From the NCBI RefSeq assembly GCF_003334385.1, contig NZ_QOWN01000012.1: 64,000 nucleotides of DNA, one strand, 5' to 3'. Shown one piece after another: positions 18,464 through 48,370 of this stretch. Numbering within the stretch: position 1 is the stretch's first letter; each line of letters begins with the position of its first letter. The translations under genes and the position numbers were made by a program. The notes beneath the pieces were generated by a model. That model was not told the DNA's origin. It did no database searches and was given only the letters and a program-made list of their open reading frames with translations. Source of the DNA: Escherichia coli (GTDB lineage Bacteria > Pseudomonadota > Gammaproteobacteria > Enterobacterales > Enterobacteriaceae).

Positions 18464-18650
18464 CCTTTGTAGGCCTGATAAGACGCGCCAGCGTCGCATC
18501 AGGCATCGGAGCACAACTGCCGGATTCGGCGTGAACGCCTTATCCGATCTACGGGCCTCGTCCCTGTTGTGATAAAGGCATCAAATCCCAGACATGATAA
18601 GACGCGCCAGCGTCGCATCAGGCGATAAATGCCTGATGCGATAAAGAGAT
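18464..18650. repeat. REP/BIME cluster (at least two REP units)
   Basis: Two copies of gataagacgcgccagcgtcgcatcaggc (18476-18503 and 18596-18623) plus an inverted REP-like unit cggattcggcgtgaacgccttatccg between them; classic REP palindromes. Confidence 0.85.
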
Positions 18651-22837: not shown

Positions 22838-24571
22838 GTGAAACAACAGATACAACTTCGTCGCCGTGAAGTCGATGAAACGGCAGACTTGCCCGCTGAA
22901 TTGCCTCCCTTGCTGCGCCGTTTATACGCCAGCCGGGGAGTACGCAGTGCGCAAGAACTGGAACGCAGTGTTAAAGGTATGCTGCCCTGGCAGCAACTGA
23001 GCGGCGTCGAAAAGGCCGTTGAGATCCTTTACAACGCTTTTCGCGAAGGAACGCGGATTATTGTGGTCGGTGATTTCGACGCCGACGGCGCGACCAGCAC
23101 GGCTCTAAGCGTGCTGGCGATGCGCTCGCTTGGTTGCAGCAATATCGACTACCTGGTACCAAACCGTTTCGAAGACGGTTACGGCTTAAGCCCGGAAGTG
23201 GTCGATCAGGCCCATGCCCGTGGCGCGCAGTTAATTGTCACGGTGGATAACGGTATTTCCTCCCATGCGGGGGTTGAGCACGCTCGCTCGTTGGGCATCC
23301 CGGTTATTGTTACCGATCACCATTTGCCAGGCGACACATTACCCGCAGCGGAAGCGATCATTAACCCTAACTTGCGCGACTGTAATTTCCCGTCGAAATC
23401 ACTGGCAGGCGTGGGTGTGGCGTTTTATCTGATGCTGGCGCTGCGCACCTTTTTGCGCGATCAGGGCTGGTTTGATGAGCGTAACATCGCAATTCCTAAC
23501 CTGGCAGAACTGCTGGATCTGGTCGCGCTGGGGACAGTGGCGGACGTCGTGCCGCTGGACGCTAATAATCGCATTCTGACCTGGCAGGGGATGAGTCGCA
23601 TCCGAGCCGGAAAGTGCCGTCCGGGGATTAAAGCGCTGCTTGAAGTGGCAAACCGTGATGCACAAAAACTCGCCGCCAGCGATTTAGGTTTTGCGCTGGG
23701 GCCACGTCTCAATGCTGCCGGACGACTGGACGATATGTCCGTCGGTGTGGCGCTGTTGTTGTGCGACAACATCGGCGAAGCGCGCGTGCTGGCAAATGAA
23801 CTCGATGCGCTAAACCAGACGCGAAAAGAGATCGAACAAGGAATGCAAATTGAAGCCCTGACCCTGTGCGAGAAACTGGAGCGCAGCCGTGACACGCTAC
23901 CCGGCGGGCTGGCAATGTATCACCCCGAATGGCATCAGGGCGTTGTCGGTATTCTGGCTTCGCGCATCAAAGAGCGTTTTCACCGTCCGGTTATCGCGTT
24001 TGCGCCAGCAGGTGACGGTACGCTGAAAGGTTCCGGTCGCTCCATTCAGGGGCTGCATATGCGTGATGCGCTGGAGCGATTAGACACACTCTACCCTGGC
24101 ATGATGCTGAAGTTTGGCGGTCATGCGATGGCGGCGGGTTTGTCGCTGGAAGAGGATAAATTCAAACTCTTTCAACAACGGTTTGGCGAACTGGTTACTG
24201 AGTGGCTGGACCCTTCGCTATTGCAAGGCGAAGTGGTATCAGACGGTCCGTTAAGCCCGGCCGAAATGACCATGGAAGTGGCGCAGCTGCTGCGCGATGC
24301 TGGCCCGTGGGGGCAGATGTTCCCGGAGCCGCTGTTTGACGGTCATTTCCGTCTGCTGCAACAGCGGCTGGTGGGCGAACGTCATTTGAAGGTGATGGTC
24401 GAACCGGTCGGCGGCGGTCCACTGCTGGATGGTATTGCTTTTAATGTCGATACCGCCCTCTGGCCGGATAACGGCGTGCGCGAAGTGCAACTGGCTTATA
24501 AGCTCGATATCAACGAGTTTCGCGGCAACCGCAGCCTGCAAATTATCATCGACAATATCTGGCCAATTTAG
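22838..24571 (+). CDS. recJ: Single-stranded-DNA-specific 5'-3' exonuclease RecJ, 577 aa
   Basis: DHH motifs (VVGDFDADGATS; VTDHH). Confidence 0.95.
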   Translation: MKQQIQLRRREVDETADLPAELPPLLRRLYASRGVRSAQELERSVKGMLPWQQLSGVEKAVEILYNAFREGTRIIVVGDFDADGATSTALSVLAMRSLGCSNIDYLVPNRFEDGYGLSPEVVDQAHARGAQLIVTVDNGISSHAGVEHARSLGIPVIVTDHHLPGDTLPAAEAIINPNLRDCNFPSKSLAGVGVAFYLMLALRTFLRDQGWFDERNIAIPNLAELLDLVALGTVADVVPLDANNRILTWQGMSRIRAGKCRPGIKALLEVANRDAQKLAASDLGFALGPRLNAAGRLDDMSVGVALLLCDNIGEARVLANELDALNQTRKEIEQGMQIEALTLCEKLERSRDTLPGGLAMYHPEWHQGVVGILASRIKERFHRPVIAFAPAGDGTLKGSGRSIQGLHMRDALERLDTLYPGMMLKFGGHAMAAGLSLEEDKFKLFQQRFGELVTEWLDPSLLQGEVVSDGPLSPAEMTMEVAQLLRDAGPWGQMFPEPLFDGHFRLLQQRLVGERHLKVMVEPVGGGPLLDGIAFNVDTALWPDNGVREVQLAYKLDINEFRGNRSLQIIIDNIWPI

Positions 24572-24661
24572 CGTCATCTTCTCTATAAAAAAGAGCGTGG
24601 ATTGGGTACAATCCCGCTCTTATCACCGCATTTTGACTAGCTCAATAAAAGAAATCAGACC

Positions 24662-25760
24662 ATGTTTGAAATTAATCCGGTAAATAATCGCATTCAGGAC
24701 CTCACGGAACGCTCCGACGTTCTTAGGGGGTATCTTTGACTACGACGCCAAGAAAGAGCGTCTGGAAGAAGTAAACGCCGAGCTGGAACAGCCGGATGTC
24801 TGGAACGAACCCGAACGCGCACAGGCGCTGGGTAAAGAGCGTTCCTCCCTCGAAGCCGTTGTCGACACCCTCGACCAAATGAAACAGGGGCTGGAAGATG
24901 TTTCTGGTCTGCTGGAACTGGCTGTAGAAGCTGACGACGAAGAAACCTTTAACGAAGCCGTTGCTGAACTCGACGCCCTGGAAGAAAAACTGGCGCAGCT
25001 TGAGTTCCGCCGTATGTTCTCTGGCGAATATGACAGCGCCGACTGCTACCTCGATATTCAGGCGGGGTCTGGCGGTACGGAAGCACAGGACTGGGCGAGC
25101 ATGCTTGAGCGTATGTATCTGCGCTGGGCAGAATCGCGTGGTTTCAAAACTGAAATCATCGAAGAGTCGGAAGGTGAAGTGGCGGGTATTAAATCCGTGA
25201 CGATCAAAATCTCCGGCGATTACGCTTACGGCTGGCTGCGTACAGAAACCGGCGTTCACCGCCTGGTGCGTAAAAGCCCGTTTGACTCCGGCGGTCGTCG
25301 CCACACGTCGTTCAGCTCCGCGTTTGTTTATCCGGAAGTTGATGATGATATTGATATCGAAATCAACCCGGCGGATCTGCGCATTGACGTTTATCGCGCG
25401 TCCGGCGCGGGCGGTCAGCACGTTAACCGTACCGAATCTGCGGTGCGTATTACCCACATCCCGACCGGGATCGTGACCCAGTGCCAGAACGACCGTTCCC
25501 AGCACAAGAACAAAGATCAGGCCATGAAGCAGATGAAAGCGAAGCTTTATGAACTGGAGATGCAGAAGAAAAATGCCGAGAAACAGGCGATGGAAGATAA
25601 CAAATCCGACATCGGCTGGGGCAGCCAGATTCGTTCTTATGTCCTTGATGACTCCCGCATTAAAGATCTGCGCACCGGGGTAGAAACCCGCAACACGCAG
25701 GCCGTGCTGGACGGCAGCCTGGATCAATTTATCGAAGCAAGTTTGAAAGCAGGGTTATGA
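24662..25760 (+). CDS. prfB: Peptide chain release factor 2, 365 aa, with programmed +1 ribosomal frameshift (frame 0 24662-24736; in-frame UGA 24737-24739; +1 frame from 24738)
   Basis: Frame 0 encodes [25 protein letters not shown] then CUU UGA C; internal SD-like AGGGGG lies 3 nt upstream of CUU; the +1 frame continues ...[13 protein letters not shown]... (GGQ motif in [11 protein letters not shown]). Confidence 0.92.
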
Positions 25761-25769
25761 GGAACCAAC

Positions 25770-27287
25770 ATGTCTGAACAACACGCACAGGGCGCTGACG
25801 CGGTAGTCGATCTTAACAATGAACTGAAAACGCGTCGTGAGAAGCTGGCGAACCTGCGCGAGCAGGGGATTGCCTTCCCGAACGATTTCCGTCGCGATCA
25901 TACCTCTGACCAATTGCACGCAGAATTCGACGGCAAAGAGAACGAAGAACTGGAAGCGCTGAACATCGAAGTCGCCGTTGCTGGCCGCATGATGACCCGT
26001 CGTATTATGGGTAAAGCGTCTTTCGTTACCCTGCAGGACGTTGGCGGTCGCATTCAGCTGTACGTTGCCCGTGACGATCTCCCGGAAGGCGTTTATAACG
26101 AGCAGTTCAAAAAATGGGACCTCGGCGACATCCTCGGCGCGAAAGGTAAGCTGTTCAAAACCAAAACCGGCGAACTGTCTATCCACTGCACCGAGTTGCG
26201 TCTGCTGACCAAAGCACTGCGTCCGCTGCCGGATAAATTCCACGGCTTGCAGGATCAGGAAGCGCGCTATCGTCAGCGTTATCTCGATCTCATCTCCAAC
26301 GATGAATCCCGCAACACCTTTAAAGTGCGCTCGCAGATCCTCTCTGGTATTCGCCAGTTCATGGTGAACCGCGGCTTTATGGAAGTTGAAACGCCGATGA
26401 TGCAGGTGATCCCTGGCGGTGCCGCTGCGCGTCCGTTTATCACCCACCATAACGCGCTGGATCTCGACATGTACCTGCGTATCGCGCCGGAACTGTACCT
26501 CAAGCGTCTGGTGGTTGGTGGCTTCGAGCGTGTATTCGAAATCAACCGTAACTTCCGTAACGAAGGTATTTCCGTACGTCATAACCCAGAGTTCACCATG
26601 ATGGAACTCTACATGGCTTACGCAGATTACAAAGATCTGATCGAGCTGACCGAATCGCTGTTCCGTACTCTGGCACAGGATATTCTCGGTAAGACGGAAG
26701 TGACCTACGGCGACGTGACGCTGGACTTCGGTAAACCGTTCGAAAAACTGACCATGCGTGAAGCGATCAAGAAATATCGCCCGGAAACCGACATGGCGGA
26801 TCTGGACAACTTCGACTCTGCGAAAGCAATTGCTGAATCTATCGGCATCCACGTTGAGAAGAGCTGGGGTCTGGGCCGTATCGTTACCGAGATCTTCGAA
26901 GAAGTGGCAGAAGCACATCTGATTCAGCCGACCTTCATTACTGAATATCCGGCAGAAGTTTCTCCGCTGGCGCGTCGTAACGACGTTAACCCGGAAATCA
27001 CAGACCGCTTTGAGTTCTTCATTGGTGGTCGTGAAATCGGTAACGGCTTTAGCGAGCTGAATGACGCGGAAGATCAGGCGCAACGCTTCCTGGATCAGGT
27101 TGCCGCGAAAGACGCAGGTGACGACGAAGCGATGTTCTACGATGAAGATTACGTCACCGCACTGGAACATGGCTTACCGCCGACAGCAGGTCTGGGAATT
27201 GGTATCGACCGTATGGTAATGCTGTTCACCAACAGCCATACCATCCGCGACGTTATTCTGTTCCCGGCGATGCGTCCGGTAAAATAA
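25770..27287 (+). CDS. lysS: Lysyl-tRNA synthetase (constitutive), 505 aa
   Basis: [33 protein letters not shown]...; class II aaRS motifs. Confidence 0.96.
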
Positions 27288-27305: not shown

Positions 27306-27333
27306 AACCCCGGCAAATGTCGGGGTTTTTTTA
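27306..27333. terminator. Hairpin terminator between convergent lysS and idi (likely bidirectional)
   Basis: ccccggcaaatgtcgggg followed by a T8 run on + strand; overlaps the idi stop codon. Confidence 0.65.
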
Positions 27334-27879
27334 TTTAAGCTGGGTAAATGCAGATAATCGTTTTCTGGCTTCGCGATTTGTCGCCTGCATCACCATCCAC
27401 GGACTGAACGCCCACGGCGTGGCATCAATACCGTGTAATACATCTGCTAAATCACACCATTGATAATCCATCACTTCATCATCATTGATCTGTAACGCAC
27501 TAGTGGTGCGTGCGGCAAATACCGGACACACTTCATTTTCCACAATGCCACTCGGATCGGTGGCGCGGTAGCGAAAGTCAGGATAGATAGATTCAGGAGG
27601 CGTAATTTCCACGCCAAGCTCATAACGGCAACGGCGGATCACTGCGTCTTCGTTGCTTTCTCCCAGTTGTGGGTGCCCACAAACCGAGTTAGTCCACACG
27701 CCAGGCCATGCTTTTTTGCTCAGTGCGCGGCGGGTAACTAATAATTGTCCTTTGGCATTAAACAGCCAACTGGAGAACGCGAGATGTAAGCGGGTGTCTG
27801 CCGTGTGTGCGGCATACTTTTCCAGCGTACCCGTGGGAACTCCCTGTGCATTCAATAAAATGACGTGTTCCGTTTGCAT
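27331..27879 (-). CDS. idi: Isopentenyl-diphosphate delta-isomerase (type 1, Nudix), 182 aa
   Basis: [71 protein letters not shown]... Confidence 0.94.
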
Positions 27880-48330: not shown

Positions 48331-48370
48331 ATGAAAATGGCCGGATGGTATTACCCACCCGGCCTTTAAA

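Follow-up and report, generated by a model that had tools for sequence, protein, structure and literature searches.

An intact programmed +1 frameshift site in prfB of an Escherichia coli strain closely related to K-12

Release factor 2 (RF2), the product of prfB, is an essential termination factor. A premature stop codon within prfB was reported for 8,164 out of 12,753 genomes (64%), and in the genomes that carry it, the sequence AGGGGG, a CTTT three bases downstream, the TGA, and a C directly behind it are almost invariant (PMC12421855). The mechanism of the +1 frameshift by which ribosomes pass this stop, as well as the need for each element of the cassette, is described in the same work (PMC12421855). 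Quantitative data are available for E. coli. Ribosome profiling showed a frameshifting level of about 28% for native K-12 prfB, which changes to 47% without RF3 and to about 21% with the Ala246 variant of RF2 (PMC5373646). Thr246 is a peculiarity of K-12 that lowers RF2 activity; the canonical form has Ala246, is more active, and is present, e.g., in E. coli B (PMC5373646).

Here, we analyse prfB in a 64-kb stretch of E. coli DNA, referred to as the window in the following. The initial annotation had described the gene as split over two reading frames with an intact +1 frameshift site, and direct reading of the sequence matched every coordinate it gave. The start codon is the ATG at 24662-24664. 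After 25 codons, an in-frame UGA follows as codon 26 (TGA, 24737-24739), with a C as the next base (24740). A gap of 3 nt separates the AGGGGG element from the CUU codon (24734-24736) behind it, and the remainder of the gene lies in the +1 frame, where it encodes RF2 residues 26 to 365 (Table 1). This +1 frame is open from 24684, directly behind a TAA at 24681-24683, down to the TGA at 25758-25760, and contains no start-like codon (ATG, GTG, or TTG) upstream of 24879. What characterises a frameshift cassette is found in one place: an early in-frame UGA, the run CUUU, an AGGGGG at a distance of 3 nt, a C after the UGA, and a +1 continuation lacking a start of its own. The complete pattern, AGGGGGNNNCTTTGAC, occurs a single time in the window with one mismatch permitted, at an expectation of 0.06 derived from shuffled sequences.

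Table 1. Features of prfB and of other loci in the window. Coordinates refer to the first base of the window as position 1.
Feature	Position	Strand	Basis and remarks
SIB RNA, at the K-12 sibC/ibsC position	3979-4129	-	Rfam, gathering level
6S RNA (ssrS)	4778-4961	-	Rfam, gathering level
naRNA4	18472-18549	-	Rfam, gathering level
recJ, upstream neighbour	22838..24571	+	NF008290, 1192 bits; annotation
prfB frame-0 segment	24662..24736	+	ATG and 24 codons, RF2 residues 1-25; matches residues 1-25 of 1gqe/1ml5
334-aa antisense ORF, non-coding by-product	24723..25727	-	codon register exactly that of the prfB +1 frame
Internal Shine-Dalgarno-like AGGGGG (codons Arg22-Gly23)	24725..24730	+	identical to K-12; Shine-Dalgarno-like stimulator according to PMC12421855
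Spacer UAU (Tyr24), 3 nt	24731..24733	+	E-site codon while CUU is in the P site; spacing as in the conserved motif
Slippery run CUU-U (Leu25 codon and first base of the stop)	24734..24737	+	sequence; PMC12421855
Premature RF2-specific UGA with following C, weak UGAC context	24737..24740	+	sequence; PMC12421855
prfB +1-frame segment, GAC (Asp26) to Leu365, with its own TGA at 25758-25760	24738..25760	+	339/340 identical to K-12 RF2 residues 26-365
Ser205-Pro206-Phe207 (SPF) codons	25275..25283	+	sequence, numbered by alignment to K-12 RF2
Codon 246 GCG (Ala), canonical non-K-12 allele	25398..25400	+	alignment; PMC5373646
Gly250-Gly251-Gln252 (GGQ) codons	25410..25418	+	sequence
lysS, downstream neighbour	25770..27287	+	starts 9 nt after the prfB stop; profile match, annotation
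Terminator-like hairpin with T-run after lysS	27306..27337	+	consensus scan only

Besides the primary sequence, we looked for structural signals. A search of the region 24300-26000 against Rfam with permissive E-value filters returned no match, and hence no curated RNA family for the cassette; this outcome weighs on neither side of the frameshift reading. The predicted fold of 24700-24800 is unremarkable (z = -1.73; 8 out of 200 shuffled sequences fold equally well) and gives no sign of a stimulatory structure. Both observations are consistent with a mechanism that is independent of RNA structure. A scan for sigma-70 promoters upstream of prfB yielded no convincing site.

The identity of the gene product was examined by joining 24662-24736 to 24738-25760, which gives a protein of 365 amino acids. 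Residues 1 to 365 of this protein align to residues 1 to 365 of the solved E. coli RF2 chains 1gqe_A and 1ml5_Z with E-values of about 1e-240. Each alignment contains one substitution and zero gaps, and it runs across the Leu25/Asp26 junction, as had been predicted for a joined RF2 product. The NCBIfam model TIGR00020 (prfB) assigns 525.9 bits to the joined product at a cut-off of 370. The two RF1 models reach 305.7 and 303.8 bits and stay under their cut-offs of 400 and 423. The protein carries the SPF tripeptide, which serves stop-codon recognition in RF2. It also carries GGQ, the catalytic motif of the release factor (PMC5373646). Implementing these results, we regard it as practically certain that 24662-25760 is an intact E. 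coli prfB, which encodes RF2 and contains an autoregulatory programmed +1 frameshift.

The window is colinear with MG1655 3060944..2998984 up to the tRNA gene glyU and shows 99.99% identity over about 62 kb, the differences being 7 substitutions and a single 1-nt indel. The indel concerns the intergenic region between argP and scpA, where an A-run at window position 180 lacks one base relative to MG1655 (3060765). The part that matters for frameshifting, 24561-24900, is base-for-base identical to MG1655 and covers the leader, the first 25 codons, the cassette, and the next 160 bases. We infer from this identity that frameshifting, as well as its inverse response to the RF2 level, would occur in the present strain. 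Judged by sequence, the window belongs to a strain very close to K-12 but free of the K-12-specific RF2 mutation. In spite of the 99.99% identity, the Ala246 allele places it outside the K-12 laboratory lineage.

Conservation within the species was evaluated on complete E. coli genomes. prfB is present in all of them (5426 out of 5426), and a segment of 1401 bases around the gene is 100% identical in many E. coli chromosomes. The 40 bases 24711-24750, which include the cassette, are found exactly in 4412 of the 5426 genomes and at an identity of at least 95% in all 5426. Sampled variants differ only downstream of the cassette, by TAC to TAT at Tyr27 and GCC to ACC at Ala29. A particular situation was found in E. 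coli BH100 substr. MG2014 (NZ_CP024650.2, locus 165-183). Here, GGGG replaces GGGGG in the internal Shine-Dalgarno element, and prfB forms a single frame throughout, which is annotated as an ordinary CDS without frameshift. Either RF2 autoregulation has really been lost in this case, or the homopolymer was assembled wrongly. An exact 28-nt seed over the cassette is missing from six of the 5426 genomes, and a few further single-frame cases of this kind may be among them. One genome of the 5426 has its prfB match on a record labelled plasmid, probably a chromosome record that was mislabelled or fragmented.

For the comparison across species, one genome per species was scanned for the exact 16-mer AGGGGGTATCTTTGAC, and at least 120 species genomes contain it. 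Among the matches listed, the taxa according to the record titles comprise Gammaproteobacteria, other proteobacterial groups, Bacteroidetes, Nitrospirae, and others. The +1-frame ORF is RF2 in 115 of the at least 120 genomes, and in 114 its first residue aligns to residue 26. Five of the 120 matches listed are unconfirmed as prfB, being either truncated where the stored sequence ends or chance matches; by calculation, about 139 chance matches of the 16-mer are expected in 298 Gb, both strands included. Since the set was picked by the exact cassette, it shows the breadth of the occurrence and gives no unbiased conservation rate, which rests on PMC12421855. The RF2 proteins of the other species have a median identity of 70% to that of the window among the matches listed. 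Third codon positions flanking the 16-mer carry as little as 0.16-0.39 bits in the matches listed and are nearly randomised; the flanks have therefore diverged freely at synonymous sites.

The following scheme combines two sources. The anatomy of the site, the identity of the product, the identity to K-12, and the conservation result from the present analysis; pairing with the 16S rRNA, slippage of the tRNA, and dependence on RF2 are taken from the literature. Ribosomes would start at the ATG at 24662, read 25 codons, and stall when CUU (Leu25) occupies the P site and UGA the A site. With a C behind it, UGA is a poor termination signal, decoded by RF2 only. If RF2 is plentiful, termination would occur at this UGA, and a peptide of 25 residues would be set free. 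If RF2 is scarce, the ribosome would pause, and the AGGGGG element could pair with the anti-Shine-Dalgarno end of the 16S rRNA. Upon this pairing, the E-site tRNA would be displaced (PMC12421855). The peptidyl-tRNA-Leu could then slip from CUU to UUU, such that GAC (Asp26) occupies the A site. Reading of 340 further codons in the +1 frame would lead to full-length RF2 with 365 residues. Abundant RF2 terminates at its own UGA in this scheme and would therefore limit its own synthesis. It is very unlikely that the 25-residue termination product has a function of its own. Nothing in our data supports one, and the peptide is conserved because it is the N-terminus of RF2.

A break in the reading frame could also be explained without a programmed event. 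One such explanation would be a sequencing error or an inactivating mutation that turned prfB into a pseudogene. A plain ORF list, which gives separate ORFs of 25 and 293 amino acids, is in agreement with such a view, and the single-frame prfB of BH100 substr. MG2014, different by one G, demonstrates that one-base differences do occur in this homopolymer. However, the same break is present in 4412 of the 5426 complete E. coli genomes, K-12 included, and among the matches listed, 114 other species have it at the identical codon. The full motif of Shine-Dalgarno element, CUUU, and UGAC surrounds it, for which we expect 0.06 chance occurrences per window, and RF2 is known to be an essential termination factor. 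The pseudogene explanation is thus in effect refuted by the conservation data, and we assign it a vanishingly small probability. RF2 might alternatively be a protein of 293 amino acids that is initiated independently at the ATG at 24879, with the 25-codon ORF being an unrelated upstream ORF. This ATG is indeed the first start-like codon of the +1 frame, but that frame is already open for 65 startless codons (24684-24878) in front of it. Moreover, residues 1-25 from frame 0 and residues 26-72 from the startless part of the +1 frame match the full-length solved RF2 residue by residue, and the +1 ORF of other species aligns from residue 26. Internal initiation is rejected by this alignment upstream of Met73; we give it practically no credit. 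The UGA might finally be decoded by readthrough, via a near-cognate tRNA or selenocysteine, and not be bypassed by a frameshift. UGAC is known as a leaky stop context (PMC12421855), which would allow for such an event. Past the UGA, however, frame 0 reaches a TAA at 24833 after a mere 31 codons and contains no RF2 coding sequence, whereas the RF2 sequence goes on in the +1 frame only. Rfam matched no RNA family, SECIS or other, in the region 24300-26000. Readthrough, rejected by the absence of RF2 from frame 0 after the UGA, has next to no chance of being correct. Evidence contrary to the intact frameshift site of prfB was not found in this analysis.

A further question concerns the 334-aa antisense ORF, which could be taken for a real overlapping gene in view of a length that is unusual for a non-coding frame. 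The initial annotation had called it spurious, and its codon register, the lack of a family match, and the lack of conservation in other species bear this out. In the given register, antisense stops can arise only from TTA, CTA, and TCA codons, and prfB contains one TTA, no CTA, and no TCA among 341 codons. recJ, by contrast, has 13 such codons in 578. The great length of the antisense ORF is therefore a consequence of prfB being nearly devoid of these codons, and it ends with the TTA at 24723, where the +1 frame ceases to code. It has no match in NCBIfam. The 101 full-length prfB genes of other species contain a median of 4 antisense stops, and only 24 of them keep at least 300 codons open. 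We consequently reject a coding antisense ORF, its length following from the codon usage of prfB, and hold a real gene in this place to be exceedingly improbable. A similar ORF was observed in lysS, where 471 codons are open on the minus strand (25755-27170), again in codon register and without a family match, because there is only one TTA, CTA, or TCA among the 506 lysS codons.

The ORF track contains 24879..25760 (293 aa) and the antisense ORF as had been described, together with 24662..24739 (25 aa). The accompanying expectation that automated callers would misannotate prfB stood in part. It holds for tools that are purely ORF-based: such finders seek start-stop pairs within a single frame and may overlook genes of this type or split them (PMC10274946). 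It does not hold for NCBI PGAP, which joins the CDS. In every examined RefSeq E. coli record with an intact cassette, PGAP gives a joined two-piece CDS with the note 'programmed frameshift'; prfB of MG1655 is likewise a joined CDS, and the NCBIfam model of prfB is flagged 'exception'. From a practical point of view, ORF-only scans will show prfB as split or truncated, and pipelines should join 24662-24736 and 24738-25760. The feature is real and was read rightly by the initial annotation, and it is already known, being a textbook case in a textbook organism. Our finding changes nothing in this respect: +1 frameshifting was discovered in E. coli, and the sequence is identical to the one studied there.

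Some observations concern the surroundings of prfB. The gene's own stop is a TGA-G, which RF2 can read. A GAGGA at 25759-25763, which represents the Shine-Dalgarno sequence of lysS, overlaps this stop, and the ATG of lysS follows 9 nt after it; this arrangement suggests that prfB and lysS are translationally coupled. The prfB-lysS transcription unit probably ends at the terminator-like hairpin after lysS. Between recJ and prfB, we observe another hairpin at 24592-24622 (AGAGCG-T-GGATTG ... CAATCC-CGCTCT) that is preceded by an A-run and scores as terminator-like for the minus strand alone. It may terminate recJ transcripts, lacking a U-tract, or may halt antisense transcription.

Other parts of the window were compared to K-12 as well. 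The identity ends exactly at the 3' end of glyU, a tRNA-Gly(CCC) gene at 61707-61780. The remaining part, 61781-64000, carries a site-specific integrase and a DUF4145 protein and matches only three complete E. coli genomes at about 100%. In K-12, ygeQ/ygeP and IS2H are located beyond glyU in its place, and the segment looks like a genomic island integrated at this tRNA gene. The yqeA-yqeB intergenic region is about 180 bp longer in MG1655 than in the window. At 48338-48365, a stretch of 28 nt matches two places in K-12, about 180 bp apart by coordinates, and the length difference is probably a repeat-flanked indel. The three small RNAs in the window (SIB RNA, 6S RNA, and naRNA4) are ordinary E. 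coli features.

Three known systems serve as a reference for the locus. RF1, encoded by prfA, is a homologous class-I release factor that has the GGQ motif in common with RF2, and its models match the prfB product at about 305 bits. This score lies below the RF1 cut-offs, however, and RF1 genes are without a programmed frameshift, unlike prfB. K-12 prfB (b2891) has the same start, the same 25 codons, and the same AGGGGG-UAU-CUU-UGA-C cassette, and the gene order xerD-dsbC-recJ-prfB-lysS-idi is common to both genomes. The RF2 proteins are identical in 364 out of 365 residues (residues 1-25 from identical DNA, residues 26-365 in 339 of 340 positions). The sole residue difference is found at position 246, with Thr (ACG) in K-12 and Ala (GCG) in the window; it stems from one of the 7 substitutions relative to MG1655, located at 25398. 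With respect to the general motif of bacterial prfB genes (Baranov et al. 2002; Prince et al. 2025, PMC12421855), the window has the full consensus and shows no difference.
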